Below, in pieces: positions 3,824 through 63,299 of a DNA stretch of 64,000 bases. How positions within the stretch are numbered: position 1 is the first letter of the stretch; the number at the start of each line of letters is the position of its first letter. The position numbers and the translations under genes were made by a program. Source of the stretch: Shigella phage Henu12. The notes below the pieces were generated by a model. The model saw nothing but the letters and a program-made list of their open reading frames with translations. It was not told the DNA's origin and did not search any database. The stretch lies in sequence record OQ834936. One strand, 5' to 3'.

Positions 3824-4003
3824 TTACTTTTTAAATTTCTTTCCAGTTCCATTACAGTAAGGGCAACAATGACCTATACCAACTACCCCAGAACCTTCAC
3901 ACTCATCACAAGGTTCAGTCTCTGAGAAGTACTTGCATAGTAACATTGCAATAGCAACTATACAACCGAGTGAAAGAACAATTTCTAACCAATAACCTTG
4001 CAT
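3824..4003 (-). CDS. small membrane-anchored DnaJ-type zinc-finger protein (59 aa, below ORF-track cutoff)
   Basis: ATG at 4003 preceded by AGGAG 8 nt upstream; translation MQGYWLEIVLSLGCIVAIAMLLCKYFSETEPCDECEGSGVVGIGHCCPYCNGTGKKFKK has one hydrophobic helix and two CxxCxGxG repeats. Confidence 0.4.
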   Translation of the reverse strand: MQGYWLEIVLSLGCIVAIAMLLCKYFSETEPCDECEGSGVVGIGHCCPYCNGTGKKFKK

Positions 4004-4332
4004 ACCTTATCTCCTATAGTTCTGAATAGGACAAAACTTCTGTCATGAACAATACTCGAAGATACTGCAAAACTATTCTCAAGTATCTTTTTGTTTGGAT
4101 TGTAAAATTCTTCTTGAAACAAATCAAGAGCTTCTTGATGGTTCTGTGGAAGACCTTTGATATAGACCTTCAAAGTAACCGTTGTATAAATCTCAGAAGC
4201 TAACTCTGATTGTGCTGCTTGAAACAGTTCATTGATAAACTTATGACCATCTTCAGGACGCTTAATGTTTTCCCAACGTTCTTCAATGATTAAATTAACA
4301 TTCATCTGTTTAATTTTCATAGTAATCTCCAC
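3985..4332 (-). CDS. hypothetical protein
   Basis: 115 aa ORF, co-oriented, preceded by a terminator and followed by an overlapping small ORF. Confidence 0.45.
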   Translation of the reverse strand: MEITMKIKQMNVNLIIEERWENIKRPEDGHKFINELFQAAQSELASEIYTTVTLKVYIKGLPQNHQEALDLFQEEFYNPNKKILENSFAVSSSIVHDRSFVLFRTIGDKVCKVIG

Positions 4333-4333
4333 A

Positions 4334-4358
4334 AATTAAAAAGGCTCCCGTAGGAGCC
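4334..4358 (-). terminator. intrinsic terminator (GGCUCC-UACG-GGAGCC plus U-tract)
   Basis: 6-bp GC inverted repeat at 4343-4358 with tetraloop and T-run on the minus strand, directly 3' of the Nampt-family gene. Confidence 0.6.
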
Positions 4359-4373
4359 TCTTATCATACTGTT

Positions 4374-6200
4374 TTAAAGTTGCTTGTCAATAGTATTTCG
4401 AACATCACGCAGGTTAACGTAACCATAAGGTTGCGAGTTACTAAATACCAGTTTCAAAGCACTATGACAGTTGTCAATTGCACCTTCAAACTCTGCAAAG
4501 CCAAAACCATCTACAGCTACCAGCTTGTCACCATCCCACATAGGGACAACTCCACCAAAAGCAGACTTCTTAAGACCGCTGTCAGTTTTAGGGTCTTTAG
4601 CCAGCATAATTTCTTGACCATCCATCTGTGCAAGAGTTGCTTTAACAGCAAATGCAAAGGTGTCACGAGTCAGGTACTGATAGGTGTATGAGCCTACACC
4701 AAACACTACGTTAGAACTTGCAAAACCTTTATCAGCAAGACGTGACAGAATCTCATTAGCCCTTTCCAGAGTGATAGAATCACCGTAGATTAGCCCAATG
4801 TGCTCATCCAGTACTTTGTACCCTTTGGAGTTAACAGTGCCACCAAAGATGTTATACAGCGTGTGTATAGCTCCATCAATTTCTGCTGTTAACATACGCT
4901 TCACAGTAAACTGTCCAGTTTTCTGAGCGGTAATCAGGTTGATTGTGTCAATATAATCAAAATCTTCATTTTCAACAACCATCTCATAACCTTCAGAGAT
5001 TAACCAAGCAGAGAACCCAAAACCAATATCAGACATTTCACAATTCAAGATTGTGTCATGCAGATGGGTATTATCTGGTGCAAGACCTTTCATGTGCTTG
5101 TAGAACATTGACTTAGCAGTTTCCCATTCAACGGCTTTGTAACCTGTAACAATGTGAACAGGGTCTCCAGAGTCTGGACGAATTACCAACTTACCATCAC
5201 GATTCAGAATTACATTACGTAGCTCTGGCAGAATCTGTGTAACAGTACGCCAGAAGTTGTAAGTATCTGATACGGCACTTGCAATACCAGTTGGGTAAAC
5301 TTCTGTCAGAAGGCGATGGAAAGTTTCTACCTCACCACGCCAACGTTTGGCATCTAGTAATCCTTCAGACTGCATAATGTACTGTGAGTGAATATCCTCT
5401 TCTGTCAGGTCTTTCATATTCCATGAAATGTTTGCACACATCACAGAGTGTTCAGTTGCTGGTACAGAGTTGCCAATATCACTGATTGTCATAAACTGAC
5501 CATAAGCACGTTTAGCAGTATACACAGCAGGGAAGCTGTCAGTACCTTTAAAGCTGGTCAAGTGACCTACAGCATTAAAAGCATCATCTGTGAAGCCAGA
5601 CATACCACGCATTGCAAAATCATGACACTGCCAAGGTAAATGGAAGTCATTGTCACAGGTCTTGTCAGCCCATTGTTTACAGATACGTTTGTAATGCAGT
5701 GCAATAGTTGCAATCGTACAAGCCTTCCAGATTTCAGCAGAGAAAGCATCTTCAAGGTAACCAGCTACCCAATGGAATCCCTCTACAGTGTTTTTAAAGA
5801 CAATCATCGGGACACGCATAGGGACAATTGTACCTTCCTCTACAGAGTAGACTTCAACAGGTAGGTAACCCAAGTCATGAAGTTCTTCCCAATGTTGACG
5901 ACCAATAGCATCTGCACCAAGGACACCATTCATGATTTCCAAGATTTCGTCAATGGCTTCTTTCTTATCACGTTCAAAGAACGTTGCATTCCAGTGGTCT
6001 ACCAGATAGTCTTTTACAAAACGCTGAATACCAAAGGCTACAACACCATCAATCTCTAACGGAGAGTTAAACCATTTATCTCCACGAGGTGTTAAGTTCA
6101 GCATAAGATACTGTGTAGCATCTGGATACTGGTAGAAATGGCCAGATTTGTAGGCATCTGCATTAAGTGCTGCTGGTACTGCATAAAGTGATTTAGTCAT
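4374..6200 (-). CDS. nicotinamide phosphoribosyltransferase family protein (Nampt/NadV-like; could be a Namat-type NAD+-forming transferase)
   Basis: 608 aa; N-terminus ALNADAYKSGHFYQYP resembles the Nampt start (LLATDSYKVTHYKQYP); GVGSYTYQY-type motifs; about 100 aa longer than canonical Nampt. Confidence 0.8.
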   Translation of the reverse strand: MTKSLYAVPAALNADAYKSGHFYQYPDATQYLMLNLTPRGDKWFNSPLEIDGVVAFGIQRFVKDYLVDHWNATFFERDKKEAIDEILEIMNGVLGADAIGRQHWEELHDLGYLPVEVYSVEEGTIVPMRVPMIVFKNTVEGFHWVAGYLEDAFSAEIWKACTIATIALHYKRICKQWADKTCDNDFHLPWQCHDFAMRGMSGFTDDAFNAVGHLTSFKGTDSFPAVYTAKRAYGQFMTISDIGNSVPATEHSVMCANISWNMKDLTEEDIHSQYIMQSEGLLDAKRWRGEVETFHRLLTEVYPTGIASAVSDTYNFWRTVTQILPELRNVILNRDGKLVIRPDSGDPVHIVTGYKAVEWETAKSMFYKHMKGLAPDNTHLHDTILNCEMSDIGFGFSAWLISEGYEMVVENEDFDYIDTINLITAQKTGQFTVKRMLTAEIDGAIHTLYNIFGGTVNSKGYKVLDEHIGLIYGDSITLERANEILSRLADKGFASSNVVFGVGSYTYQYLTRDTFAFAVKATLAQMDGQEIMLAKDPKTDSGLKKSAFGGVVPMWDGDKLVAVDGFGFAEFEGAIDNCHSALKLVFSNSQPYGYVNLRDVRNTIDKQL

Positions 6201-6210
6201 CTTTTTATCT

Positions 6211-6226
6211 CTCTCAAAGTGGGGCT
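6211..6226 (-). other. GC stem-loop GGGGCU-GAAA-AGCCCC (minus sense), no U-tract
   Basis: Identical to the 1359-1374 hairpin; lies between the Prs-family stop and the Nampt-family RBS. Confidence 0.5.
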
Positions 6227-6244
6227 TTTCAGCCCCTAAAGTTG

Positions 6245-7144
6245 TTATTCAATATTTGCTACGGTCACTTGTGAGAAGTGGGAAAGACCACGGTCTTTTT
6301 CATCCCCTAGTGAGTTTGTAGTGTAGATATGGTCGATACCATTGTCAAGGAGATTTTCAACACCTTTAGAGAAAATCCCATGAGTGACATACAGTTCCAC
6401 ACGTTCTGCTCCAGCTTCACGAAGATACTTTGCAGCCTCGATAAAGGTTCGACCACCGTCACAGATATCATCCAGAATCATGACAGTCTTACCTGTCAAG
6501 TCTACATCATCAAGGATTCGCATACCAGTGATTTCACCAGTTTTCAGGTTTCGTACCTTAGCCATTGTAATATAAGGTTTATCAACCTCTTTAGCAGCCT
6601 CTTCAGTCTTCTTAGCTGCACCTGCATCTGGAGCCACTAAGTAATCAATGCGTGGGTCACTTGCAAAGTGGACTGCTGCCTCTTTTTGAGGGAGGTTGTA
6701 GAAGCTCTTAAACAAATTCTCTGCAACATTACTGTGAGTATCCAGAGCACATACTGCATCGAACTCCATAGCATTTACAAGATTTGCAAAGACTTTAAGT
6801 GCTGCTGCATCACCTTTAAACATGTGACGGTCATAGCGAGCATTTGGTAAGAATCCAAAGACAACAGTTTTCAGAGTTGCTTTCTGAGGAATCAAACGGT
6901 CAATTGCTTCTTTAGCCATAGCTAATGCAAAGAGTGTGTCTTTGTCATAACCTTGTACTGTGAAGACTACGTTTTCAATCTTACCAGCAGCATGTTCAGC
7001 AAAGTCTACTAAGTCTTCTGAGAAGTTACCACCAATCTCCCCAGAAGGGAACTGGATAATGTTGAAGGTCTCTTGATGAGAACCTTTGGAATTTGAATTA
7101 AGTAGAACTCGAATAGTAGTTTTCATAATATTTCTCTCAGTCAA
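6245..7144 (-). CDS. ribose-phosphate pyrophosphokinase family protein (Prs-like; could be an ADP-ribose pyrophosphokinase)
   Basis: 299 aa; Prs-like motifs FPSGEIGGNF (cf. RFSDGE), FGFLPNARYDR (cf. GYARQDRR) and the PRPP-binding loop MILDDICDGGRT. Confidence 0.8.
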   Translation of the reverse strand: MTERNIMKTTIRVLLNSNSKGSHQETFNIIQFPSGEIGGNFSEDLVDFAEHAAGKIENVVFTVQGYDKDTLFALAMAKEAIDRLIPQKATLKTVVFGFLPNARYDRHMFKGDAAALKVFANLVNAMEFDAVCALDTHSNVAENLFKSFYNLPQKEAAVHFASDPRIDYLVAPDAGAAKKTEEAAKEVDKPYITMAKVRNLKTGEITGMRILDDVDLTGKTVMILDDICDGGRTFIEAAKYLREAGAERVELYVTHGIFSKGVENLLDNGIDHIYTTNSLGDEKDRGLSHFSQVTVANIE

Positions 7145-7442
7145 AAGTTACAAATGTTACAGCCATAGCTGATTTACATTTCTTTGGGTCTACAATGTGG
7201 TAGATAACTGAACAGTTTCCTGTTCCGTCTGGTACTGGTTTTGTCCAAGTACGTTCAATATTTGGCTCTCCAAACTCTTTATAGAATCCGTTGGAATAGT
7301 GGTTTACCATCTCAATAGCAAGTGCATCTGGAACGTGACCACGTATCATATACATCTCACAACCATTTCCACCATCACTCACTAGTGGTATAATATCCCA
7401 TTGTTCTCTAGCCATGATAAGTTGCCTCATAAACTGTCTCAA
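7137..7442 (-). CDS. hypothetical protein
   Basis: 101 aa ORF, co-oriented, overlaps neighbours by a few nt. Confidence 0.4.
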   Translation of the reverse strand: MRQFMRQLIMAREQWDIIPLVSDGGNGCEMYMIRGHVPDALAIEMVNHYSNGFYKEFGEPNIERTWTKPVPDGTGNCSVIYHIVDPKKCKSAMAVTFVTFD

Positions 7443-7923
7443 GCTTCAACAAGAGAGATATTGCCAGAAATGCGTATTCCCTGTCAAGCATTGGTGGCAT
7501 ATTATTTATAAGATATGCTTCCTGTTCTTCCCAAGTCATCTTAGGAGCTTCTGGAAGCTTCTCTCCCTGCTTCTGGTTATCTTCTTGAGTCTGGATAAAC
7601 CAGTTCGAGCAATGGTGCTCTCCACCTTTTGTCACGGGCTTATGGTGGCCTAATGTGAAAGCTTTCTTTCCAGAATATCTACAAAGCTTATTAAGAGTTG
7701 CAATAGTGTTCTTGACAACACAGTATTCATAGAGGTTGTCAATAGTATAGTGAGGGTAGTACTGGAACAAGGCACTATCACGAAACTTACCACGGTTCCA
7801 AAGTACCATGTGGTTAGAATTTGAAGGGTCATACTGATGTGAATCGATGAACTCTTGACGCTCATCAAAATCAAGACGAAGAACAGACATTGCAGCAGCA
7901 CGTTTCAGATTTGAATGGTACAT
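7408..7923 (-). CDS. hypothetical protein
   Basis: 171 aa ORF; no motif recognised. Confidence 0.45.
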   Translation of the reverse strand: MYHSNLKRAAAMSVLRLDFDERQEFIDSHQYDPSNSNHMVLWNRGKFRDSALFQYYPHYTIDNLYEYCVVKNTIATLNKLCRYSGKKAFTLGHHKPVTKGGEHHCSNWFIQTQEDNQKQGEKLPEAPKMTWEEQEAYLINNMPPMLDREYAFLAISLLLKLETVYEATYHG

Positions 7924-7931
7924 GATTTCTC

Positions 7932-7962
7932 CAAAATAAAAAGGGAACCTTTTACAGTTCCC
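7932..7962 (-). terminator. intrinsic terminator (GGGAAC hairpin plus U-tract)
   Basis: Inverted repeat GGGAAC/GTTCCC at 7943-7962 with T-rich run on the minus strand. Confidence 0.5.
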
Positions 7963-7975
7963 TAATCATATACGT

Positions 7976-8287
7976 TTACTGAGCTATTTTCAAGACTTTT
8001 AAGAAACCTTCCTCACCAATTGCATCATAAACGTTTTCAGTTGGCTTGATAAGGTTATTCAAGCATACAATTTTCTTACGCTTCTTGTCATAAGTAAGCT
8101 TCAGTTGTTTCAACTCTTTGTCATCTTCAGGGTGCTCATTGTACATCTTCACAGCTTCTTTAAAGCTAATGTAGCCACCACCTAGAGTAAGGAAACCTGT
8201 ACCACAATAGTGGGAGTTGTGTTTATCAGCCATAAACTGGCACAGGATAGAAATCTGAATTTTACGAGTGTTATAAACCTTTTCCAT
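7976..8287 (-). CDS. hypothetical protein
   Basis: 103 aa ORF. Confidence 0.45.
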   Translation of the reverse strand: MEKVYNTRKIQISILCQFMADKHNSHYCGTGFLTLGGGYISFKEAVKMYNEHPEDDKELKQLKLTYDKKRKKIVCLNNLIKPTENVYDAIGEEGFLKVLKIAQ

Positions 8288-8298
8288 TTTAATAATCC

Positions 8299-8556
8299 TT
8301 ACTTGCTACGTTTACGGTTGCGAGCTTTTTTAGCTGCACGTTTAATTGCTGCTGCACCAGTTTGGCGATGAGCTTGCTTCTTACCACCTTTACCACGTCC
8401 AACATGGATGTAAGGTTGCTGTTCAATCTGGCTTGCAAGAACCTGTGCAACTGCTGAAGCGTCTACTCCAACCTGCTTACCAGTCATTGAAACGATAGCT
8501 GCTGCTTTTGCCAGAGCTGCTAAGAAACCTGCTTTCATGTTTGAAAAAATTCCCAT
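8299..8556 (-). CDS. hypothetical small protein with Ala-rich N-terminus and highly basic C-terminus
   Basis: 85 aa; C-terminal KRAAKKARNRKRSK. Confidence 0.4.
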   Translation of the reverse strand: MGIFSNMKAGFLAALAKAAAIVSMTGKQVGVDASAVAQVLASQIEQQPYIHVGRGKGGKKQAHRQTGAAAIKRAAKKARNRKRSK

Positions 8557-16978: not shown

Positions 16979-17297
16979 GGTATCTATCCAAGTTTCGTTT
17001 CAAGTAAATCCACTGGTCATCTGTGCGCTCTACACCCATGAACAGGGGGGCTACAACAACTTTACCAAAAGTATTTCTGTGCTGGCAAATCTCGTAAGAG
17101 TACGGTTTATCAATATTCAGCCCATACTTATACAACACTGCTGCTAATACTTGTTCATTATCCAGAATCGTTTCTGGCTTCTCTCCGTACTTGTCTAACA
17201 GTGAATCATTCATAAACACTGTCATAGAGAGGTTGTAGTTGGAGAAGTGGCTTTTTGCCACCACTTCTTCACCTTTATTAATGTTCTGTGAATCCAT
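16971..17297 (-). CDS. hypothetical protein
   Basis: 108 aa ORF. Confidence 0.45.
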   Translation of the reverse strand: MDSQNINKGEEVVAKSHFSNYNLSMTVFMNDSLLDKYGEKPETILDNEQVLAAVLYKYGLNIDKPYSYEICQHRNTFGKVVVAPLFMGVERTDDQWIYLKRNLDRYHV

Positions 17298-18033
17298 TAT
17301 AACCGACTCCTTTCAACCACTGCTTGAGGTTGATTGCATCATAATTCAATTTCGGATATGAGGTTACATGGAACTTCTCACCATCATAGTACACAATATC
17401 CGCAAGCCATAATCCATTCTCACGGCAGAAATCTTTATCTGCTTTTGAAGAGATTGGTTCAACTTTAGAAAAGTTTTTAATGCCAAGACTACCAAGACTT
17501 CCAATCAGTCCTTGGCAGATAACGCATGTGTCAGATGTTACCACAAATAATTCTTTTGCGTCAACTTCTGCAATAAAACTTTCAAGTTGAACTTTTGGAA
17601 GATTAGACTGTTTCATAATCTTACCATCAGACTTGCGAATAATTGCAAACCACTCTTTACCTTCAATAATTGATTGACGCAGGTAACATTCATCACCAGT
17701 ACGTTTTTCAATATCAAACATTCGCTGTACAGCTTCTTGATAGTCGTCTGTGTATTTGAGGTTGTTGTTTTCACAAACAGCCTTAATAGCACCATCATGG
17801 TCATGCTGTGTCAGGAAAATTAAACCGTCAAGTACATACTGCAAATCAGCTTGAGCATCAAGGGTCTCAACAGGGTCTTTGGCTTCTACTGCTGCGACTA
17901 ACTCTCTAGCTTCTTCAAGCATACACAGGGATTGACTTTTCAGTGATTCCCAATACTCTGTGCTGTATGGCTCTTTTGGATTATTGCCACAACGTAGATT
18001 CCAATCTCTTACGGATTCTCTGGAATTAAACAT
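17278..18033 (-). CDS. MazG-like nucleoside triphosphate pyrophosphohydrolase domain protein with extra C-terminal domain
   Basis: 251 aa; N-terminal LEEARELVAAVEAKD resembles the all-alpha NTP-PPase EExxE motif; the C-terminal half is unassigned. Confidence 0.45.
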   Translation of the reverse strand: MFNSRESVRDWNLRCGNNPKEPYSTEYWESLKSQSLCMLEEARELVAAVEAKDPVETLDAQADLQYVLDGLIFLTQHDHDGAIKAVCENNNLKYTDDYQEAVQRMFDIEKRTGDECYLRQSIIEGKEWFAIIRKSDGKIMKQSNLPKVQLESFIAEVDAKELFVVTSDTCVICQGLIGSLGSLGIKNFSKVEPISSKADKDFCRENGLWLADIVYYDGEKFHVTSYPKLNYDAINLKQWLKGVGYNGFTEH

Positions 18034-18263
18034 TAAGCCTCCTTATCTTCAAACAACTTTTGTTGAGACTCAATATAGTCCATTCGTTCTTTGAGTTCAA
18101 CACGTTTGCTTAACAGATGTTGAATTTGTGATTCCAGAGCATCCATCTCAGCTTCTGTAGCTGACTTAGCTTTATTGATAGTCTCCTTCAGTGCTGCTAC
18201 GCCGCTCTGGATTTTAGAAACATGGTCATTTTTGATTTTATTAAACATTTTAAACTCTCTCAT
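18033..18263 (-). CDS. hypothetical coiled-coil protein
   Basis: 76 aa, heptad-like charged pattern. Confidence 0.4.
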   Translation of the reverse strand: MREFKMFNKIKNDHVSKIQSGVAALKETINKAKSATEAEMDALESQIQHLLSKRVELKERMDYIESQQKLFEDKEA

Positions 18264-18750
18264 TAAGTTTCATGATTTTAGTGATTCTCTTCTCAGCTTC
18301 ATCATAAGTCTCTTTTGTAAGAAACTTGATTGCTGCAATGTTTGCATTGTAGAAGAGTCGAAGCTTAGAGTCAATCCTTTTTGTCATGACGTCAAACTTA
18401 TGTTGTAGGTTAGCTTCGCCGTAAACTAAGCCACCTCGCGTATAGTAAGTCTGGATAATGTAGAAGTCAAATTCTTTTTCACCAAATGCTTCAATATCTT
18501 TCTTGATGTACTCAGAAGAAGTTTGGTAGACCATCCAATCACTTTCTTTTGTCACTACTTTACGTCTGGTCTTTCCAGCAACCTTCTTCTTAGTGATACT
18601 GTTAAACTGCTTTTTACCCAAATAATATTGACCAGTCTTTTTACAGTATACTAAGTAGACAAATCCGAAGTACTTAGCGGGGTCAATCTCCCCGCATAGT
18701 GAAATCCAGTGACCATAAGTAGGGCAATTGCCAAAACCTTTAATCTTCAT
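18250..18750 (-). CDS. GIY-YIG domain nuclease (seg/EndoII-like)
   Basis: 166 aa; GFVYLVYCKKTGQYYLGKK fits the GIY-(x9-11)-YIG pattern. Confidence 0.45.
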   Translation of the reverse strand: MKIKGFGNCPTYGHWISLCGEIDPAKYFGFVYLVYCKKTGQYYLGKKQFNSITKKKVAGKTRRKVVTKESDWMVYQTSSEYIKKDIEAFGEKEFDFYIIQTYYTRGGLVYGEANLQHKFDVMTKRIDSKLRLFYNANIAAIKFLTKETYDEAEKRITKIMKLNERV

Positions 18751-19247
18751 TCATAAGTTTCTCCGTGATTTGCAAACTCTCTGTGGAGTTCTTCTCTTTT
18801 CTTTCTAATTGCTTCTTTGGCATCATCAACGTTATCAAACAGACCAAGGAAATGTGTTACACCGTGAACCATAATCCTTGCTCTCCACTTCTGTGAAGCT
18901 TTGTTGAATGATACACCTTTTACACCAGATGTATTGTTGGAGTGTATTTTTCTATTCCAACAATTTTCAGCTTGAGTGCAAACTCTCAAGTTCATTCTTC
19001 GGTTGTCATCAGTAATTCCGTTACGATGGTCTACACGGTCTGGTAAGAACCCCTCTGTGTAAAGAATGGCTAAATCATGAGCCATGTATGATTTTCTCTT
19101 TATGGTAATCCTGATATAACCCCTTTTATGGGGTGTTCCAGCAACTGAACCAATGACTGTCCTATTAGCCGATTTCTTCAACCAAGTAAAGACCCCTGTT
19201 TCGGGGTCATAGTGTAGATATTCTTTAAGAATCTGCCGAGTTAACAT
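18747..19247 (-). CDS. HNH homing endonuclease with AP2 DNA-binding domain
   Basis: HNH motif VDHRNGITDDNRRMNLRVCTQAENCWN and AP2-like GVSFNKASQKWRARI; paralogous to 28826-29341; the ORF could start as far upstream as 19283. Confidence 0.75.
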   Translation of the reverse strand: MLTRQILKEYLHYDPETGVFTWLKKSANRTVIGSVAGTPHKRGYIRITIKRKSYMAHDLAILYTEGFLPDRVDHRNGITDDNRRMNLRVCTQAENCWNRKIHSNNTSGVKGVSFNKASQKWRARIMVHGVTHFLGLFDNVDDAKEAIRKKREELHREFANHGETYE

Positions 19248-20298
19248 TTGGTGTCCACCCATACTTATCAAAAGTGAAATCATCTTTCTTATTTCTTTCC
19301 TGATAAGCTAAGAAAAAGTGTTGCTGCATTAACTCTAAAGGTGTTCTGGTAATTGTCTGACCATCCCATGAAACATAAGTGTAAGAGTCTTTCTTAGCAT
19401 ACAGTTCATAAATTGCATCAAGACATTCTTTGTAAGTAGTTTTACCTTCAAGAGCTTTCATTACTGCAACTTTACCAGCACCCTTTAAACCGAAGTAGTT
19501 ATCTGCGTTATCACCAGCTACGGCTTGGTAGCAGAGGAATTTAAATCCTACTCCAACTGTCTTCTTAGCTTTTGGTGTAGATTTTATTGGGCAATCCCAA
19601 ATTTCACCAACGTTATTATCAGCGATAAAAATCAATGGGGCTTTCTCATAAGTCATATCAATGCAGTAAGTACCTTCAGCTTGTCGAAGGTCTTTGTCAA
19701 TACTCATGAGGGCAGCTTTTTTACCCATCTTTTCAGCTTTTGCAATAACGATAGAGTCAGCTTCAAACCCATCAAGAATCAGCTTAAACTCTGGTCGTGA
19801 CAGAAGATACTCACGACAAGCAACTAGGTGTGTAGGTGTTACAGCTTCTTTTCTGTTACCTTGGTATTGGTGTTCAAGACCTTTGATATCCTTGTGTTTG
19901 TGAACACCTTTCTCAGTAAGGTAACCCATCCATTTGCGTTCTTTACCAACGACTTTCAACCACTCCTGAAGAACTTGCTGTGTAGCCATAATTGCTTCAG
20001 CTTCACTTTTAGCTTCTTTCCAAGTCTGTCTTTCCCATTCATCTTCATCAAAGTCAAGTCCTAACTCTTCAGTTAAAACTCTTTGGTCAGACAACCATTG
20101 TGCTGCCAGTTTTGCACTATCAAAAGCATCGGATTCTTCAGCAGTGATTTTATTCACATACTTGTACTTTGCTTTTTCAACTACACAAGCACCTTTGTAA
20201 GCAATGCTATCAGAGTCAATAAAGACGTGTGTAACGCTCTCTGGGAGCTTTGTTAAGGTGTATTGTTCCATTGTACTCTCCATACGAAAAAGCCCCAT
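19225..20298 (-). CDS. 5'-3' exonuclease (FEN/RNase H family)
   Basis: 357 aa; VFIDSDSIAYKG (cf. Pol I 5' nuclease LILVDGSSYLYRA), GFEADSIV acidic cluster, GLKGAGKVAVMKAL helix-hairpin-helix-like segment. Confidence 0.55.
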   Translation of the reverse strand: MGLFRMESTMEQYTLTKLPESVTHVFIDSDSIAYKGACVVEKAKYKYVNKITAEESDAFDSAKLAAQWLSDQRVLTEELGLDFDEDEWERQTWKEAKSEAEAIMATQQVLQEWLKVVGKERKWMGYLTEKGVHKHKDIKGLEHQYQGNRKEAVTPTHLVACREYLLSRPEFKLILDGFEADSIVIAKAEKMGKKAALMSIDKDLRQAEGTYCIDMTYEKAPLIFIADNNVGEIWDCPIKSTPKAKKTVGVGFKFLCYQAVAGDNADNYFGLKGAGKVAVMKALEGKTTYKECLDAIYELYAKKDSYTYVSWDGQTITRTPLELMQQHFFLAYQERNKKDDFTFDKYGWTPNVNSADS

Positions 20299-26129: not shown

Positions 26130-28829
26130 ATGGACAATGTAGATTTCGAAAAATTACATTTGGTTGGTGATACAGAAACTGATGGGTTGCTCCTTGAGTT
26201 TACAAAAGCACACGTAATGGCTTTCGCAGACTATAAAGATGACAGTGATGAACCTGCTGTGTGGGTTTTCACTGATGAGCCTATTCTTGGTCACAAGTAT
26301 ACAAAATACATCAAAGGTGGTCTGCGTGAAGGTGTTGAGTTTGCACTGAAAGCTAAACGTCTTTGTATCCACAATGGTCTTGGTTATGACTGGTGGGTGT
26401 TTAATCACATTGCACCTGACCTGTGGAACTTTGAGAATCCTAAGTGTAAGCCTTGGAGTGACTTCTTTCAGGATTCACTTATCCAATCTCGCGTACAGTG
26501 GATGGATAGACCTACACCAAAAGGTTACAAAGGTGCTCATGGTTTGGCTGCATGGGGTGCTCGTGTTGGTGTTCGTAAACCAGAGATTGAAGAGTGGGGT
26601 GTATGGAATGCAGAGATTCTTACTCGTGTTGTAGAAGATATTAAGATTAACGCCAAAACTAAACGTGCTCTTGATAATGAGTACCTTAAGCTTAAGAAGT
26701 GTGGTGTTGACACTTATGAAACCTATATGCGAGCTAAAGAAACATCTTTCTGGATGAGCCAGCAAGCTATCAACGGTTGGAAAGCTGATGTAGAACTTAT
26801 GCAGTTCCATGTTAAAGAACTTGACAAGTTAACTAATGAGTTAGCTGCTGAGGTTGAGCCACACCTGCCACCAACTATCAAGACAAAAGGTAAGGTCACA
26901 GGTGAAGAGTTTGCTAAGTCTTGGAATGAGTATGTGGATACATTTGGTCACGTTGACGGCTTAAAAAGGATTACCAAGTACCCTAAGACAAAGTATCGTG
27001 AACAGATGCGTGAAGGTGAGTTGAAGCAATACCCTATCAAGCCATATGGAAAGCCAACTACAAAGATTTTTAACGTTGAGAAACGTAACTGCTACACACC
27101 AACTAATACGGTTACCAAAGAAGAGTACCCTGAAGGTTTCGTAGCAATGAAAGATGCTCGTGCAGTTTGTAATGAACTGAATGAGAAGATTGGGAAGAAG
27201 TGTAAAGATTGGAAACCAGTTAAGACTGTGAAGATTGTGAAGTACTATAATGTGCATGTTGTAAATCACTTCGAGTTGGAGTCAAGTCGCTACACTGGTT
27301 TGATTGATGCACCATTCACACCAATTGAGTTTGAAGTTTCACGAATGACTCAGGTAGCTGTGGTGAAGGATTACTTAAAATCTGTTGGTTGGATTCCTGA
27401 TGATTGGAACTACAAAAAAGATTCTGATGGTCGTCCGGTTAAGGTTTGCAGATTCAAAGACAACAAAAAGATGATTCGCAAACATCCTAAGTGGGATGAG
27501 ATGGTTGAGCGTTGTGGGTTGAACTATATTGAGCATGAAGGTGTCTATTACATCGAGCATAACTGGTCTGTTAAGAAGTACACAGATGTGCTTGAGCCTT
27601 GCTTGATTAGGACTTCACCAAAGCTTACAGAGTCTTCTTATGATACAATCGAAGGTGAGCTTGGACAGAAGATTGCGAAGTACTATACTTTGATGCACCG
27701 ACGCAGGACTATTGAGAACTCAAAGGATGATGAGAAAGGTTGGCTGAACCAGATTCGTCCAGATGGTCGTTTGAGTGCAGGTGCAATGGTGTTTGGTACT
27801 TCTACTGGACGTATGACTCAGTATGGTATTGTAAACGTACCTTCTGGTGCTGCTGTTTACGGTGAGCCAATGAGGGCAGTGTGGATTTGTGAAGAGGGAA
27901 CCAACGTAGTATCTGTTGATATGAACTCTGCACAGCTTGTACTACTCTGTAACTTCATGGGTGATAAAGACTTCACCAAAGCGGTAACAGAGGGTAAAGA
28001 AGAGATTGAGTTTGTTCGTCAAGAGGATGGAAGATACTACTGCAAACACTTTGACCAGTATCTGAATCCAGAGATTGACAAGTATCTGCGTTATGACTCT
28101 GAAAACGATTTGTACGTAGTTTACTCAGGGACTGATGCTCACACTCTGAACAGTATCTACTTCAGCCTTAATGATGAGCAAGATATCTTGACTTGTCGTG
28201 CTACTCAGGATGAGAATCTTCTTCATGAGATTAGCAAGGGACGTAAGAAAGCTAAGAATGGTATCTATGCCCTGTTGTTCGGTGCAGGTGATGAGAAGTT
28301 TGCTAAAACAATTAAAGCAGCAACTACTCAGGAAGGTGCATTGACTAAGCAGACTTACTTTGTGCGCTTGCCGAAGATTAAGAAACTGTTAGACAACTTG
28401 GAAGCTGATTTCAAAGCAACTAAGAAAGCACTTGAAGAGGTGTTTGGTAAAACTGCTGCGATAGCTAAAGGTGGTTTTGTGAAGGTTGCTGGAGCTTGGC
28501 TGTGGTGTAAGTCTCCACACAAGCTGTTAAATTACCTTTTGATGGGTTCAGAAAGTCAAGTCCAGAATGAAGCAATTAACCTTGCATGTCGTCGTATGAT
28601 TGATGAAGGTTTGATGAAGTTGAATGGTCGTAAACCAGCTATTGGCGCTCGCTTACTCTGTGCTTACCACGACGAAACAAGTTGGGAATGTCCAGAGCAC
28701 ATGACAGCAGATGTGAAAGCAGTAACTGACTGGTATTATGGTCAAGCATCTAAGAACCTTGGACTAAGGAAAGAAACCTTGGTAACAGGTACTGGTAAAG
28801 TTGGTAAGAGCTGGTATGAGGTACATTGA
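26130..28829 (+). CDS. DNA polymerase, family A, with 3'-5' exonuclease domain
   Basis: 899 aa; Exo I motif DTETDG near the N-terminus; motif C YHDE; terminal His characteristic of Pol I-type enzymes. Confidence 0.9.
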   Translation: MDNVDFEKLHLVGDTETDGLLLEFTKAHVMAFADYKDDSDEPAVWVFTDEPILGHKYTKYIKGGLREGVEFALKAKRLCIHNGLGYDWWVFNHIAPDLWNFENPKCKPWSDFFQDSLIQSRVQWMDRPTPKGYKGAHGLAAWGARVGVRKPEIEEWGVWNAEILTRVVEDIKINAKTKRALDNEYLKLKKCGVDTYETYMRAKETSFWMSQQAINGWKADVELMQFHVKELDKLTNELAAEVEPHLPPTIKTKGKVTGEEFAKSWNEYVDTFGHVDGLKRITKYPKTKYREQMREGELKQYPIKPYGKPTTKIFNVEKRNCYTPTNTVTKEEYPEGFVAMKDARAVCNELNEKIGKKCKDWKPVKTVKIVKYYNVHVVNHFELESSRYTGLIDAPFTPIEFEVSRMTQVAVVKDYLKSVGWIPDDWNYKKDSDGRPVKVCRFKDNKKMIRKHPKWDEMVERCGLNYIEHEGVYYIEHNWSVKKYTDVLEPCLIRTSPKLTESSYDTIEGELGQKIAKYYTLMHRRRTIENSKDDEKGWLNQIRPDGRLSAGAMVFGTSTGRMTQYGIVNVPSGAAVYGEPMRAVWICEEGTNVVSVDMNSAQLVLLCNFMGDKDFTKAVTEGKEEIEFVRQEDGRYYCKHFDQYLNPEIDKYLRYDSENDLYVVYSGTDAHTLNSIYFSLNDEQDILTCRATQDENLLHEISKGRKKAKNGIYALLFGAGDEKFAKTIKAATTQEGALTKQTYFVRLPKIKKLLDNLEADFKATKKALEEVFGKTAAIAKGGFVKVAGAWLWCKSPHKLLNYLLMGSESQVQNEAINLACRRMIDEGLMKLNGRKPAIGARLLCAYHDETSWECPEHMTADVKAVTDWYYGQASKNLGLRKETLVTGTGKVGKSWYEVH

Positions 28830-29341
28830 TGCGAGATTGTGGATTCACACATGAACAGTTAAAGTCTTGGTTAAACTATGACCCCGAAACAGGGGTCTTA
28901 ACGTGGATTGGCAGGCCTCCACATAGTAGTAGGGTGGTTATTGGGAGCCAAGCCGGAGCAATCAAGCGCACAAGGTCTGGTGTGTATATGCACACACAGA
29001 TTTTAGGATACAGGACAGGCAATCACCGAATTGCTTGGTTCTGGATGACAGGCAAGTGGCCTGATAAACACATTGACCACAAAGATGGAGATGGTTTGAA
29101 TAACGCTTGGGACAATCTCAGGGAGGCCACAAAAGAACAGAACATGTCTAATAGGAGACAACCCAGAACATCAAAAAACTTAAAAGGTACAAGTAGAAGC
29201 AAGTCTGGTAAGTGGATAGCCCAGATTAACCATAATGGCAAGACTATACATATAGGTACATACACAACAGAAGAAGAAGCCCATAAAGCTTACTGTGAAG
29301 CTGCTATTAAACTCCACGGAGAGTTTGCAAAACTAAGTTGA
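28826..29341 (+). CDS. HNH homing endonuclease with AP2 domain
   Basis: 171 aa; HNH motif IDHKDGDGLNNAWDNLREATKEQNMSN and AP2-like segment; shares YDPETGV(L/F)TW with 18747-19247; start overlaps the polymerase stop. Confidence 0.75.
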   Translation: MMRDCGFTHEQLKSWLNYDPETGVLTWIGRPPHSSRVVIGSQAGAIKRTRSGVYMHTQILGYRTGNHRIAWFWMTGKWPDKHIDHKDGDGLNNAWDNLREATKEQNMSNRRQPRTSKNLKGTSRSKSGKWIAQINHNGKTIHIGTYTTEEEAHKAYCEAAIKLHGEFAKLS

Positions 29342-33153: not shown

Positions 33154-33513
33154 ATGAAACGTGAAAATGCAATCTTTAATGATAACTTTGCAATTGGCTT
33201 CTATGGTAAACCAACTCCAGCAGAGAAACTTTATGGTAATGCAATTCTGGAGACCTTGAAAGAGGTTTACACAACTGGTGGTATGAAGCATACTGAAGCA
33301 AACCGTGTAAGAGGTTATATGGCAATTGGCTCTGCAATCTCTAACATCAAACTTGAAACTACAAGTGCTAAAAAGGTACGAGACCACTTCATCAAAGAGT
33401 TGTCAGATAACCTAGATGGTGTTGAAGTCAAGGCTGTCTGGTTAGATGTTGATGGTCACAACTACACAACTTTTGTGTTTAAAAATGAGGATATCAAATG
33501 TCTCTTCCCTTAA
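33154..33513 (+). CDS. hypothetical protein
   Basis: 119 aa ORF. Confidence 0.45.
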   Translation: MKRENAIFNDNFAIGFYGKPTPAEKLYGNAILETLKEVYTTGGMKHTEANRVRGYMAIGSAISNIKLETTSAKKVRDHFIKELSDNLDGVEVKAVWLDVDGHNYTTFVFKNEDIKCLFP

Positions 33514-34001
33514 AACTCGATTTATACTTTGGGTACAGTGTATTGCAAGGCAGCATACTATCACTACCAAAGTCAGATTATCGTTGTGATTTAGGTTCTG
33601 TGAAACGTGCATCACACTTTAACAACAACATCTTAGGCTTGCAGACACTTCACAGGTGGCTTGAGGAAGATGGACGGTTGAATGAATATCTTCACCAACT
33701 AGAACTAGCCAAAGAAGAAGGGCATATGGGTTGGGATTTACTACCCCATCTGTACAAGCCTGCAAGCCCTATGGAGATACGCTATAACGAACAAGCAATT
33801 GATAGTTATAACAAATATAATATAACTATTGGCTCCAGAGCTTGGAAGGAGTATATGAAACTCCGTGAAATCATCATACAGACTATTGGAAAGCGTGTAG
33901 CAAAAGGTCTTGCTTATGATGAAAAGGTTGACTGGAATACACAAAAGTGTATAAAATTCTTCAAGTACGATAATGACAAGGATACTTTTGTAGAGGTTTA
34001 A
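33498..34001 (+). CDS. hypothetical protein
   Basis: 167 aa ORF. Confidence 0.45.
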   Translation: MSLPLKLDLYFGYSVLQGSILSLPKSDYRCDLGSVKRASHFNNNILGLQTLHRWLEEDGRLNEYLHQLELAKEEGHMGWDLLPHLYKPASPMEIRYNEQAIDSYNKYNITIGSRAWKEYMKLREIIIQTIGKRVAKGLAYDEKVDWNTQKCIKFFKYDNDKDTFVEV

Positions 34002-34002
34002 C

Positions 34003-34518
34003 ATGAAAATTGGAATTACCTTTTGCCAGCCTGAAGCAGAGTTCTTGAAATCAATGTTGTCTGAGCATATGAAAGCTACAAATCATACTGAGAAGACATT
34101 CTTGATTGACACTAACTATGATGCAGGAACTATTGAGTTCATTGATGAAGACACTGCTGACTCTCTGTGTGTTCTTCCTGCTCACTTATTTACTCCAGAG
34201 CTACGTGACAGTCGTTCTATTGAAGTTAATCTGGAGCCAAGTATTGAACTCTACTCAGACATACAGTATCCAAGAAGCTTTAAAGCATTGCTAAACATCT
34301 TCATAGCTGATATTGTAGAGATTGTTAAGCAGACCGAAGGTGGTCATGTAGTAACTGCTGAGTATGAACAAGGGACTATCAAACTGACAGGTGACTTTGG
34401 TTCTATGAGTTTCTTAGACTTTGTTCCAAAACACTTTGAAGATTTCCTGTCAAGTGAAGTTGATGACCTTGATTTCATACTAAAATTTGAACGCACTTTT
34501 AAGGTAAACAAAAAATGA
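34003..34518 (+). CDS. hypothetical acidic protein
   Basis: 171 aa ORF. Confidence 0.45.
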   Translation: MKIGITFCQPEAEFLKSMLSEHMKATNHTEKTFLIDTNYDAGTIEFIDEDTADSLCVLPAHLFTPELRDSRSIEVNLEPSIELYSDIQYPRSFKALLNIFIADIVEIVKQTEGGHVVTAEYEQGTIKLTGDFGSMSFLDFVPKHFEDFLSSEVDDLDFILKFERTFKVNKK

Positions 34519-60447: not shown

Positions 60448-60523
60448 TGGAGTATCGGAAGGGATTTGAACCCTCATAAACCTGTTTTGCAGACAGGCAC
60501 ATATCCATTTCTGTCACCGATAC
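60448..60523 (-). tRNA. tRNA-Cys (anticodon GCA)
   Basis: Manual fold: 7-bp acceptor stem, anticodon loop CUGCAAA, T-loop TTCAAAT, encoded CCA. Confidence 0.75.
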
Positions 60524-60530
60524 ATTAAAT

Positions 60531-60623
60531 TGGAGGAAGATACCAGACTTGAACTGGTACGCCGATTTCTCGGTTACTGGCAGTTTAGCAAACTGCTCCC
60601 TTACCTTTTAGGGTTAATCTTCC
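60531..60623 (-). tRNA. tRNA-Ser (anticodon GCU), long variable arm
   Basis: 93 nt; acceptor GGAAGAT/ATCTTCC; anticodon loop TTGCTAA; T-arm ACCAG-TTCAAGT-CTGGT. Confidence 0.7.
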
Positions 60624-60624
60624 A

Positions 60625-61359
60625 TTATTTGTTCAGAGCTTCTTTCATCTCTGGAGTTGCGATAGTATCAATCACACCAGTTTTACATGAATCGTCAAAC
60701 CAGCTTGGTAGAACATTCGCAAGGAAACCATTAATATTTGTTTTCAGGTATTCTGCAATCAGTGCTGCTTCATCTGCAATCATCTGAGTTACTTCATTAG
60801 CATATGCAGTAATCTTTGTAATACCCTCATTAATCGCTGTAACGGCCTGTGTAGCGAGTTCAGAGATTGTATCTAGTCCTTGGTCGATTGCATCTTGCAA
60901 ATCGCTTAGGACGCTATTTACAGCGTCTATGGAGGTATTAATCAAATCCATCGCTTTATTACCGTACTCGGTAGCTACGCCCATGATACCGCTAAACGGT
61001 GTACATCCAACCTGTTCACCTGCTGCTCCCATAACGTTAGAGTAACCTTTAGCTACTTGCATACGTTGTGAAAACTCATCTACAGACTTTTGTCCATACT
61101 CAGTGAGTGTACTTGTCGTTGAAGTTGTACTTCCAAGGCTTGTTGTGAAGCTTCCTAATAAGGCTGTTGTCAGTCCAGCAGCAACTAAAATCTGTTGTGT
61201 TGCAGGGTCTGTTACAGAACTAATTGAGTTCACTAATGATTGAGAAGCAGCTACAGTACCACCAAGAACTGCTGCACCAGTAATAAGAGGGTTAGAGAAC
61301 CCATTACCAGTTTTAAGGAGATTAAAAATCTCTTTACTTTGTTCTGTCATCTCTTTCAT
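60625..61359 (-). CDS. hypothetical Ser/Thr/Ala-rich protein inside the tRNA region
   Basis: About 244 aa from the internal Met; low-complexity S/T/A/G-rich sequence; the ORF-track start at 61422 would overlap a tRNA-like element. Confidence 0.4.
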   Translation of the reverse strand: MKEMTEQSKEIFNLLKTGNGFSNPLITGAAVLGGTVAASQSLVNSISSVTDPATQQILVAAGLTTALLGSFTTSLGSTTSTTSTLTEYGQKSVDEFSQRMQVAKGYSNVMGAAGEQVGCTPFSGIMGVATEYGNKAMDLINTSIDAVNSVLSDLQDAIDQGLDTISELATQAVTAINEGITKITAYANEVTQMIADEAALIAEYLKTNINGFLANVLPSWFDDSCKTGVIDTIATPEMKEALNK

Positions 61360-61377
61360 TATGCACCTATAAAGTTG

Positions 61378-61452
61378 GTAGCCCATCGGGATTTGAACCC
61401 TGTTCTCATGTTTTTCAGACACGCGCTTTAACCATATAAGCTAATTGAGCTA
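61378..61452 (-). tRNA. tRNA-like element, possibly tRNA-Phe (anticodon GAA), noncanonical
   Basis: T-loop TTCAAAT and acceptor pairing present, but the T-stem has only 3 clean pairs and the acceptor/D junction is irregular. Confidence 0.4.
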
Positions 61453-61458
61453 TTAAAT

Positions 61459-61535
61459 TGGGGTGACCTACGGGAATCGAACCCGTATAGACCATGTTCA
61501 CAGCATGGGTCATTATCCATTTATGATAAGGCCAC
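61459..61535 (-). tRNA. tRNA-His (anticodon GUG)
   Basis: Manual fold: D-stem TCAT/ATGA, anticodon stem CCATG/CATGG with loop CTGTGAA, T-arm ACGGG-TTCGATT-CCCGT, CCA encoded. Confidence 0.75.
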
Positions 61536-61566
61536 ATTTAAGGACTCTCGTAAGAACCCTTAGAAG

Positions 61567-61642
61567 TGGCAGCAGTATAAGGATTTGAACCTTAATCTTT
61601 CAGCTTCAGAGGCTGGAGCATTGCCAGTTATGCTATACTGCT
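61567..61642 (-). tRNA. tRNA-Gln (anticodon CUG)
   Basis: Acceptor AGCAGTA/TACTGCT, anticodon loop CTCTGAA, T-loop TTCAAAT. Confidence 0.6.
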
Positions 61643-61648
61643 AATATT

Positions 61649-61727
61649 TGGTACTCCATATCGGATTCGAACCGATACATAACACAGATTTTAAATCTGG
61701 CCTCTCTGCCAATTGGAGTAATGGAGC
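61649..61727 (-). tRNA. tRNA with Leu-type anticodon UAA (class I length)
   Basis: Acceptor and T-arm ATCGG-TTCGAAT-CCGAT are clear; anticodon loop TTTAAAA; D-loop CAATTGGCAGA; variable region only about 7 nt. Confidence 0.5.
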
Positions 61728-61729
61728 AT

Positions 61730-61805
61730 TGGCGGGGGATGATGGAATTGAACCATCTTCTTCGATTTCAAAGACCGAGGTTTTAACCTTGTAAACTAAT
61801 CCCCT
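61730..61805 (-). tRNA. tRNA-Gln (anticodon UUG)
   Basis: Anticodon stem TCGGT/ATCGA with loop CTTTGAA; T-arm GATGG-TTCAATT-CCATC. Confidence 0.6.
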
Positions 61806-61813
61806 ATTAAATT

Positions 61814-61890
61814 TGGTGCAGAATAGAGGATTCGAACCCCTAACTAACAACTTCGTAGGTTGCTGCTCTATCCATTTGAACTAATTCTGC
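61814..61890 (-). tRNA. tRNA-Arg (anticodon ACG)
   Basis: Perfect acceptor GCAGAAT/ATTCTGC; D-stem GTTC/GAGC; anticodon loop CTACGAA; T-loop TTCGAAT. Confidence 0.75.
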
Positions 61891-62052
61891 AATATCCTTT
61901 TGAGATTCCTGTCTAGCTCTCTTCTTATCTCTTCTGAGAAAGCGTTTACGATGGTCTGTACGCCATTTGTAATAATCTTCTTCACCATCATGTGCTGCAC
62001 AGCAGCCACAACTTGCAATTTCAACTTTACCATGTCTACCATAAGGCTTCAT
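61840..62052 (-). CDS. hypothetical Cys-rich basic small protein embedded in the tRNA array
   Basis: 70 aa ORF with GGAG RBS 7 nt upstream of the ATG; its 3' 50 nt overlap tRNA-Arg(ACG). Confidence 0.3.
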   Translation of the reverse strand: MKPYGRHGKVEIASCGCCAAHDGEEDYYKWRTDHRKRFLRRDKKRARQESQKDIAELVQMDRAATYEVVS

Positions 62053-62067
62053 AGGAATCTCCTAATT

Positions 62068-62145
62068 TGGTGTTCCAAGACGGATTCGAACCGTCACTAA
62101 TACAAGGTTTGAGCTTGCATCCTCTGCCAATTGGGATACTGGAAC
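62068..62145 (-). tRNA. tRNA with Leu-type anticodon CAA (class I length)
   Basis: Acceptor GTTCCAG/TTGGAAC; D-loop CAATTGGCAGA; anticodon stem GCAAG/CTTGT with loop CTCAAAC; T-arm GACGG-TTCGAAT-CCGTC. Confidence 0.5.
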
Positions 62146-62146
62146 T

Positions 62147-62221
62147 TGGTACTCGCTGAAGGACTTGAACCTTCTTCACCAACTTGTAAGGATGGGGCTT
62201 TACCGTATAAACTAAGCGAGC
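62147..62221 (-). tRNA. tRNA-Val (anticodon UAC), tentative
   Basis: T-arm GAAGG-TTCAAGT-CCTTC; anticodon loop CTTACAA; one mismatch in the anticodon stem. Confidence 0.5.
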
Positions 62222-62317
62222 TTTAAAAGAGGTCTGAAGTTGTGCCGCTAACTCAACTCCGTGGAATTTGTTACGGTCTTCAGTTGACTCAAGCGGTCTT
62301 TCACTTGACCTCAAAAT

Positions 62318-62394
62318 TGGTGCTGCTCACAGGACTCGAACCTGCATCTCCATCCTTACAAGGGATGTGCAATAGCCAATTATACGAAAGCAGC
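62318..62394 (-). tRNA. tRNA-Thr (anticodon UGU), tentative
   Basis: Anticodon stem CATCC/GGATG with loop CTTGTAA; T-loop TTCGAGT. Confidence 0.55.
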
Positions 62395-62400
62395 ATTATT

Positions 62401-62475
62401 TGGAGCATCCAGAGGGAATCGAACCCTCAACTTCAGTTTGGAAGACTGTAGTTTTCCCATTTAAACTATGGATGC
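62401..62475 (-). tRNA. tRNA-Gly (anticodon UCC)
   Basis: Acceptor GCATCCA/TGGATGC; D-stem GTTT/AAAC; anticodon loop CTTCCAA; T-arm GAGGG-TTCGATT-CCCTC. Confidence 0.7.
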
Positions 62476-62481
62476 ACTAAT

Positions 62482-62557
62482 TGGTGGAGAAGCAGGGAAT
62501 TGAACCCTGTACTTAAGTTTGCAAAACTTATGTTTTAACCATGTAAACTACATCCCC
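62482..62557 (-). tRNA. tRNA-Ala (anticodon UGC)
   Basis: G3-U70 wobble pair in the acceptor stem; anticodon stem TAAGT/ACTTA with loop TTTGCAA; T-arm CAGGG-TTCAATT-CCCTG. Confidence 0.7.
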
Positions 62558-62563
62558 GATATT

Positions 62564-62639
62564 TGGTACAGGTGGAGGGAATTGAACCCATCGTCTTACT
62601 GATTAAGAGTCAGCCGCATAACCATTTTGCTACACCTGC
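62564..62639 (-). tRNA. tRNA-Lys (anticodon CUU), tentative
   Basis: Anticodon loop CTCTTAA; T-stem partly mismatched. Confidence 0.45.
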
Positions 62640-62646
62640 ATTAATT

Positions 62647-62722
62647 TGGTACACCTAGAGAGAGTCGAACTCACACTGAACAGATTCTAAGTCTGCTGCC
62701 TCTTCCAATTGGGCTATAGGTG
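62647..62722 (-). tRNA. tRNA with Leu-type anticodon UAG (class I length)
   Basis: D-loop CAATTGGAAGA; anticodon stem GCAGA/TCTGT with loop CTTAGAA; T-loop TTCGACT. Confidence 0.5.
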
Positions 62723-63062: not shown

Positions 63063-63075
63063 CCTAATAAGACTT

Positions 63076-63158: not shown

Positions 63159-63299
63159 ACTATAATTCGAAGCTTACCCTGTTATCTCAACACTGTCAAG
63201 CTTCTTCTCAGATTATTTACATGTTCTGGAAAACATGAGATACAGACCACCTCCTTACAGGAGACCCGTTAAGGTCGTCTAAGTAATCTGCTAACTATT

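Follow-up and report, generated by a model that had tools for sequence, protein, structure and literature searches.

NARP1 and the gene pair of phage Henu12

Nicotinamide adenine dinucleotide (NAD+) reconstitution pathway 1 (NARP1), a two-gene phage module made up of the ADP-ribose (ADPR)-pyrophosphate synthetase Adps and the nicotinamide ADPR-transferase Namat, was discovered in vivo in the Felixounavirus Bas63 (Escherichia phage JohannRWettstein, MZ501086), where it is encoded by genes 79-80 (Osterman et al., bioRxiv 10.1101/2024.02.11.579819). Here we compare with this and other described systems a pair of adjacent genes, one for a Prs-family and one for a Nampt-family protein, from a 64,000-nucleotide (nt) stretch of Shigella phage Henu12 (sequence record OQ834936); the whole of that stretch is called the window below. 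In the proposed mechanism, host defence effectors of the SIR2-, TIR- and SEFIR-type (Thoeris, DSR1/2, SIR2-HerA) would cleave NAD+ into ADPR and nicotinamide. Adps would then transfer pyrophosphate from ATP to the free 1'' position of the ribose in ADPR, giving ADPR-pyrophosphate (ADPR-PP), and Namat would swap the pyrophosphate of this compound for nicotinamide, yielding NAD+ directly, with neither a nicotinamide mononucleotide (NMN) intermediate nor an NMN adenylyltransferase (NMNAT).

Bas63 from which genes 79-80 have been removed is ~20-fold more sensitive to SIR2-HerA, NAD+ depletion is deeper with it, ADPR-PP is seen only when wild-type Bas63 meets the defence system, and the counter-defence is independent of the host NMN routes PncC and NadR; protection by NARP1 has also been reported for FADO and SPbetaL1 knock-ins (10.1101/2024.02.11.579819). 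In vitro, SPbetaL1 Adps converts ADPR and ATP into ADPR-PP, and in a Prs control assay it gave no product (ribose-5-phosphate and ATP according to the figure legend, phosphoribosyl pyrophosphate (PRPP) and ATP according to the text), while SPbetaL1 Namat makes NAD+ from ADPR-PP and nicotinamide, prefers ADPR-PP over PRPP and, with both present, forms NAD+ only (10.1101/2024.02.11.579819). The structure of SPbetaL1 Namat has been solved (9W5W/9W5X; Lan et al., PMC12774641), and what distinguishes Namat from Nampt is a selectivity clamp composed of a helix motif and a variable loop (PMC12774641). Among genes of the Adps clade 97% adjoin a Namat, which bacterial prs genes rarely do, and the supplementary tables on NARP1 already hold Henu11, Sf13, Mordin and Bas63, with their Adps and 'Adps-associated' Namat proteins (Osterman et al., 10.1101/2024.02.11.579819).

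The window belongs to an Ounavirinae phage that is Mooglevirus-like, and the region around the pair is 98.8% identical in nucleotide sequence to Shigella phage Henu11 (OM953433; Ounavirinae, Mooglevirus). Altogether 258 phage records match the region, most of them Felix O1-like phages from Escherichia, Salmonella, Shigella and Citrobacter, and in these matching records the pair is always labelled 'ribose-phosphate pyrophosphokinase' and 'nicotinamide phosphoribosyltransferase'. On the minus strand of the window, the Prs-family gene (6245..7126; named adps here) comes first and is followed, after a 44-nt spacer, by the co-directional Nampt-family gene (4374..6200; 608 amino acids (aa) from an ATG start), which on the strength of its open reading frame (ORF) and orthology we name namat. 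A first reading of this DNA, made from its letters alone (the sequence-only reading), had reported the two adjacent, co-directional frames, of 608 and 299 aa, with coordinates that proved exact and family assignments with which Pfam and NCBIfam agree at scores well above chance. The length of 299 aa holds for the Prs-like frame as mechanically listed (6245..7144, minus strand, TTG start), but adps most likely starts at ATG 7126 rather than at TTG 7144, because a GAGAGA ribosome-binding site lies 7 nt upstream of that ATG and the resulting protein has the 293 aa of the annotated Bas63 and Henu11 orthologues.

On the grounds of orthology and synteny with Bas63 genes 79-80, of identity to catalogued Henu11 proteins and of the clamp motif in Namat, the gene pair is very probably a two-gene NARP1 module. 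Adps is 81% identical to bas63_0079 over 293/293 aligned aa and Namat 75% identical to bas63_0080, and the two loci share the adps-then-namat order, the orientation, a 44-45-nt spacer that holds a conserved hairpin, and the flanking genes. The order is in both cases NrdD, NrdG, small ORFs, an ORF of 171 aa, one of about 100 aa, adps, namat and an ORF of 115 aa, beyond which ORFs of rIIA and rIIB length stand at positions corresponding to Bas63. Both Namat insertions described below, the clamp-helix motif and a lysine-tryptophan (K-W) pair in the clamp loop are common to the two phages as well. They differ in lineage, Bas63 being a Felixounavirus and the window phage Mooglevirus-like, in the length of the first insertion (18 aa in Bas63, 32 aa here) and in the sequence of the insertions, which have diverged more than the core.

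In Henu11, considered here together with Sf13- and Mordin-like Mooglevirus phages, gp31 and gp32 are 100% identical to the window Adps and Namat, respectively. The Henu11 locus differs in that ~1 kb of additional sequence immediately precedes adps, with two paralogous 149-aa ORFs (gp30 and gp29; 4665-5114 and 5144-5593 of the Henu11 stretch compared) that are absent from the window, gave no significant Pfam match and are not Macro domains. Because the identical Henu11 proteins already stand in the published tables, the module is known at the level of the exact sequence, which goes further than the earlier statement that the module class had been described; the gene pair is thus already known and catalogued, and it offers nothing new for the biology of the system. 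From the orthologues we infer with high confidence that the two proteins would have the corresponding enzyme activities, and a counter-defence role, in this phage.

The Namat clamp and insertions, and the Adps protein

Pfam assigns the Nampt-like protein to NAPRTase (E 7e-31) and NAMPT_N. The profile and structure comparison that the sequence-only reading had proposed placed it closest to SPbetaL1 Namat and put the Prs-like protein below all Prs equivalog cut-offs. By sequence, the best match of Namat in the PDB is SPbetaL1 Namat (9W5W/9W5X, E 2e-125), with human Nampt at E 4e-41, and an AlphaFold2 (AF2) model (predicted local distance difference test score (pLDDT) 92.5) superposes best on the same protein, with a target-normalised template modelling (TM) score of 0.95, that is, over the SPbetaL1 chain. 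All residues of the catalytic core are kept (D15, Y17, F195, R198, D221, A248, H251, R341, D343, G473 and D474), the reference being D13, Y15, F189, R192, D215, A242, the conserved His, R306, D308, G360 and D361 of SPbetaL1 Namat. H251 stands in a PATEHS motif (5445..5462, minus strand) and aligns with the catalytic histidine of Nampt and Namat.

In the published definition (PMC12774641), the clamp helix reads GS-X-Phi-X-Phi-X-Phi-TRD, and the aromatics that stack on adenine are those at positions 3 and 7. In the same definition the selectivity-clamp loop (SCL) is variable and adds another stacking residue: R, K or Y stands third in it, and where this is K or Y the stacking falls to the fourth residue. 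In the window Namat, the selectivity-clamp helix (SCH) reads GSYTYQYLTRD (residues 503-513; 4662..4694, minus strand), and its aromatics Y505 and Y509 are the predicted adenine-stacking residues. The SCH-equivalent of genuine Nampts is GMGGALLQKVDRD in Xcc and GVGAQTYQRNTRD in HdNadV of H. ducreyi, and these proteins lack the aromatic clamp, with GGALLQKV (Xcc Nampt) and GAQTYQRN (HdNadV) in the place of the segment that holds Y505 and Y509 in Namat. The SCL of the window Namat (TPRGDKWFNSPLEID, residues 37-51; 6048..6092, minus strand) contains TPRGDKWF, in which G40-D41-K42-W43 has the same K-W arrangement as in Bas63, with stacking predicted for W43. SPbetaL1, whose SCL uses R40 directly where the window Namat has K42 and then W43, otherwise has in common with the window pair the Adps catalytic lysine, the whole Namat core, the SCH signature and the fold.

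The sequence-only reading had put the Nampt-like protein at about 100 aa over the canonical length. The extra length is real and lies inside the protein, in two insertions that the 491-aa SPbetaL1 Namat does not have, rather than in a terminal extension. Insertion 1 (residues 258-289; 5334..5429, minus strand), delimited by alignment, has 32 aa against 4 aa in short Namats, and in sequence it follows PATEHS with the catalytic His. Insertion 2 (residues 354-442; 4875..5141, minus strand), delimited by alignment and the AF2 model, has 89 aa against 16 aa in the short forms and follows RPDSGD with the catalytic Arg and Asp. It is confidently predicted to form a compact alpha/beta subdomain (AF2 pLDDT ~85-96, with defined helices and strands) and is absent from every solved Namat or Nampt structure; searched alone against Pfam it returned nothing at E<=1, and a Foldseek search with the whole model of Namat matched Namat and Nampt only. 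The two insertions together are the part of the model that lies outside all solved structures, as seen in a TM-score of 0.76 when normalised to the query against 0.95 when normalised to the target.

Identity to Bas63 amounts to 22% in insertion 1, 44% in insertion 2 and 85% in the core, and by these values the insertions evolve much faster than the core. The long form of Namat (~560-610 aa) occurs in various phages and contigs of phage size, with identities as low as ~41%, the short forms having ~495 aa, and the insertions would be compatible with NARP1 function, as Bas63 shows. The larger of the two could dock Adps to channel the labile ADPR-PP, bind a regulator or serve as a decoy surface.

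The Prs-like protein matches Pribosyltran and Pribosyl_synth in Pfam and passes the broad NCBIfam Prs model TIGR01251 (131 bits, cut-off 113), and it lies under the cut-off of every NCBIfam Prs equivalog (107.5 vs 296 bits for NF002095, 100 vs 297 for NF002320, others lower). In pairwise comparison it scores 90 bits against SPbetaL1 Adps and 67 bits against E. coli Prs; by identity and scores, taken without a tree, it appears to belong to the phage Adps clade and not to cellular Prs. Its AF2 model (pLDDT 92.9) has the Prs fold, with a TM-score of ~0.75 and 22-24% identity to the matched structures, and no Adps structure was found in the PDB. The probable catalytic lysine, K190 in the motif AKVRN (6557..6559, minus strand), aligns with K162 of SPbetaL1 Adps and with the K of the E. 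coli Prs KRR motif, which we take to be the known catalytic Lys194, and it is invariant across an alignment of 56 homologues. In SPbetaL1 Adps, the exchange K162A abolishes NARP1 activity (Osterman et al., bioRxiv 10.1101/2024.02.11.579819).

The phosphoribosyl-binding loop MILDDICDGGRT, which the sequence-only reading had described as a PRPP-binding loop, is present at 6446..6481 on the minus strand and retains its DD pair. Where E. coli Prs has DTGGT, the window Adps has DGGRT and SPbetaL1 Adps has SFGGT, a change that, we infer, may reflect a switch to the larger substrate ADPR. By analogy with its orthologues, the window Adps would pyrophosphorylate ADPR rather than ribose-5-phosphate.

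Proteins of both kinds also turned up in Enterobacteriaceae records (Klebsiella, Phytobacter, Kosakonia, Cronobacter and Kluyvera), several of them on multi-megabase contigs. These code for 495-496-aa Namat-type proteins with the clamp GS(F/Y)TYQYNTRD as well as for 284-286-aa Adps-like proteins, which fits the reported bacterial NARP1 homologues.

Alternative readings and candidate partner genes

A Pfam scan covered the neighbours of the pair, those ORFs between 7976 and 36230 that were small or unassigned, and two more from the 60-64 kb region of the window, and it also took in ORFs of at least 50 aa from the near-identical Henu11 genome outside the window. The ORFs scanned in the window and in the remaining part of Henu11 gave no match to CTP_transf_like/NMNAT or to NUDIX, and Bas63 has neither annotated. 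The sequence-only reading had seen no NMNAT motif in the neighbours and had suggested a genome-wide search; its observation thus held for the neighbours and over the wider set of ORFs. A partner with an RyR domain (RyDEP) was likewise rejected, as the scanned ORFs gave no Pfam RyR match.

Two readings had originally been offered, NARP1 and a classical route through Prs, Nampt and an NMNAT, and it is the first that agrees with the Bas63 orthology and synteny, the catalogued identity and the clamp. In classical salvage, the Prs-like protein would make PRPP from ribose-5-phosphate and the Nampt-like protein NMN, which host NadR, or PncC and then NadD/NadE, would turn into NAD+. The Pfam and NCBIfam family names and the deposited annotations point in this direction, as does the PRPP-to-NMN activity that Namat keeps in vitro; moreover, housekeeping Prs, Nampt/NadV and the NARP2 enzymes of KVP40 resemble the window pair in their two folds and in a chemistry of pyrophosphoryl transfer from ATP followed by displacement of pyrophosphate by nicotinamide. 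However, the Bas63 counter-defence needs neither pncC nor nadR, infected cells build up ADPR-PP, SPbetaL1 Adps was without product in the Prs assay, and Namat supplied with both substrates gave NAD+ only. The window proteins themselves also depart from the housekeeping and NARP2 enzymes, in that Namat has the adenine clamp that Nampt lacks, the Prs-like protein misses all Prs equivalog cut-offs and no NMNAT partner was found. We consider classical salvage very unlikely and reject it in view of the Bas63 genetics, the clamp motif and the Prs cut-offs. These points apply equally to a general role in nucleotide supply, in which extra PRPP would serve purine and pyrimidine synthesis during replication and be unrelated to defence. 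The setting of the pair amid nucleotide-metabolism genes would suit such a role (nrd, thyA and frd neighbours; NrdD/NrdG were assigned by Pfam match or synteny, and NrdA/NrdB because they agree with Bas63 in length and position), yet obligate pairing with Namat, seen in 97% of the Adps clade, would be unexpected for a PRPP supplier, and the Bas63 deletion phenotype bears specifically on NAD+-depleting defence; we judge this role extremely improbable. The third alternative, a NARP2-type pathway as in KVP40, would join a PRPP-using Nampt to a phage-encoded NMNAT, and what speaks for it is membership of the Nampt family only. Against it stand the lack of CTP_transf_like/NMNAT and NUDIX matches reported above, the position of NARP2 Nampts in a separate clade, found in phages without Adps, the absence of any report of a phage with both pathways, and the entry of the identical Henu11 protein in the 'Adps-associated' list. 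With no NMNAT found in the scanned ORFs, this pathway is effectively refuted, and we give it next to no credence.

NARP1, the reading that we favour, also has evidence weighing against it. For the large enzymes of replication and nucleotide metabolism and for the structural module (36-60 kb), the assignments come from synteny with Bas63 or from agreement in length and position, outside the Pfam scan. The NCBIfam model NF006629, a Nampt/NAPRTase 'equivalog', is passed by Namat (465 bits, cut-off 405), so that Namat and Nampt are not told apart by this model. The window proteins share only 33% (Adps) and 46% (Namat) identity with those of SPbetaL1, on which the biochemistry and structure were worked out, and the two insertions (~121 aa in total) are without a characterised counterpart. 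Bas63 Adps purified poorly, and no Ounavirinae-type enzyme has been characterised in vitro (10.1101/2024.02.11.579819). Finally, Namat in vitro still makes NMN from PRPP when ADPR-PP is absent (10.1101/2024.02.11.579819; PMC12774641), and a minor NMN side-reaction may therefore accompany the formation of NAD+ by the window protein.

A variant of the module, NARP1-AP, has the composition Adps-Adpp-Namat and is typified by Vibrio phage Gary (bioRxiv 10.64898/2026.01.28.702374). It contains the same two core enzymes, whereas the window pair has no Macro gene inside or adjoining it: the neighbours at 3824-4332 and 7137-8556 gave no Macro match in Pfam or PHROGs, and the scanned window ORFs gave none in Pfam. 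NARP1-AP as defined was rejected, there being no Macro-domain gene (the Adpp phosphatase) within two genes of the pair. One Macro-domain gene does occur in Henu11, outside the window and just past its position 1, namely gp41 (4890-5684 of the Henu11 stretch compared), which lies 8 annotated genes, or ~7.6 kb, beyond namat. Its product exceeds the Pfam Macro cut-off (24.7 bits, cut-off 22), has as its best PDB match yeast Poa1p, an ADP-ribose 1''-phosphatase, and is 30% identical to the product of the Macro gene that Vibrio phage Morian carries between its Adps and Namat genes (1437-1913 of the stretch compared). It is also 64% identical to bas63_0095 ('putative phosphatase'; 33279-34064 of the Bas63 stretch compared), the product of a Macro gene 14 annotated genes beyond namat in Bas63.

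The published search for NARP1-AP covered only genes within two of NARP1 (10.64898/2026.01.28.702374) and would therefore have missed an unlinked Macro gene. Going by these similarities, the unlinked Macro protein might act as Adpp in trans, which would amount to NARP1-AP in trans with aRES resistance; because Macro proteins of this kind occur widely among phages (2772 records), we put forward its link to NARP1 as conjecture. Between the Namat insertions and the unlinked Macro protein, there is some possibility, although a rather slim one, that NARP1 in this phage lineage holds more parts than the published two-gene account.

Hairpins, surrounding genes and the meaning of the module

The sequence-only reading had described the pair as flanked by tetraloop hairpins, and two such hairpins were found, one between the genes and one after namat. 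The first, GGGGCU-GAAA-AGCCCC in the adps/namat spacer (6221..6236, minus strand; -12.8 kcal/mol, z -3.2), has a stem that does not vary across Bas63 and Henu11 and a loop that differs in Bas63; having no U-run, it was not called as a terminator. The second, 3' of namat (4339..4362, minus strand; -18.2 kcal/mol, z -5.1), is terminator-like, with a 10-bp stem, a UACG loop and a U-run, and is invariant in Bas63 and Henu11. The description fails for the upstream side, where no hairpin lies directly before adps and the nearest one, at 7942..7963, has a 6-nt loop. As candidate structured RNA elements the two hairpins were rejected: both are conserved but essentially invariant and thus give no evidence of covariation.

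Strong sigma-70-like hexamer pairs occur on the minus strand at 7942-7993 and 4339-4390 (TTGAAA-17-TATGAT and TTGACA-16-TATGAT (11/12)), each with a stable hairpin directly after it. This promoter-plus-stem-loop arrangement possibly brackets a four-gene unit of orf171, orf101, adps and namat. The two conserved ORFs upstream of adps, of 171 aa (7408-7923, minus strand) and 101 aa (7137-7442, minus strand), belong to the function-unknown families phrog_3500 and phrog_4726, respectively; the former has weak similarity to HNH endonucleases (phrog_2214, E 2.6e-5), and in Bas63 the same two positions are occupied by ORFs 0077 (171 aa) and 0078 (92 aa). Both may be co-transcribed with NARP1.

Elsewhere in the window, an ORF of 251 aa (17278-18033, minus strand) has an N-terminal MazG-like PRA-PH domain (NTP pyrophosphohydrolase; Pfam PF01503, 26.1 bits vs 21.3). 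Three homing-endonuclease-like genes, GIY-YIG SegE-like (18250-18750), HNH_3 (18747-19283) and HNH_3 with AP2 (28826-29341), are typical mobile cargo amid replication genes. A cluster of 18 tRNA genes lies at 60448-63728 (minus strand), as it does in Bas63 and Henu11 in their own genomes.

Openings for new work lie in the insertion subdomain of the Ounavirinae Namat and in the possible unlinked Adpp, and routine annotation names still conceal NARP1 in deposited genomes. If active, the module would provide this phage with counter-defence against NAD+-depleting immunity (Thoeris, DSR, SIR2-HerA, SEFIR and similar systems), and the presence of NARP1 bears on the prediction of host range and on the choice of therapeutic phages.

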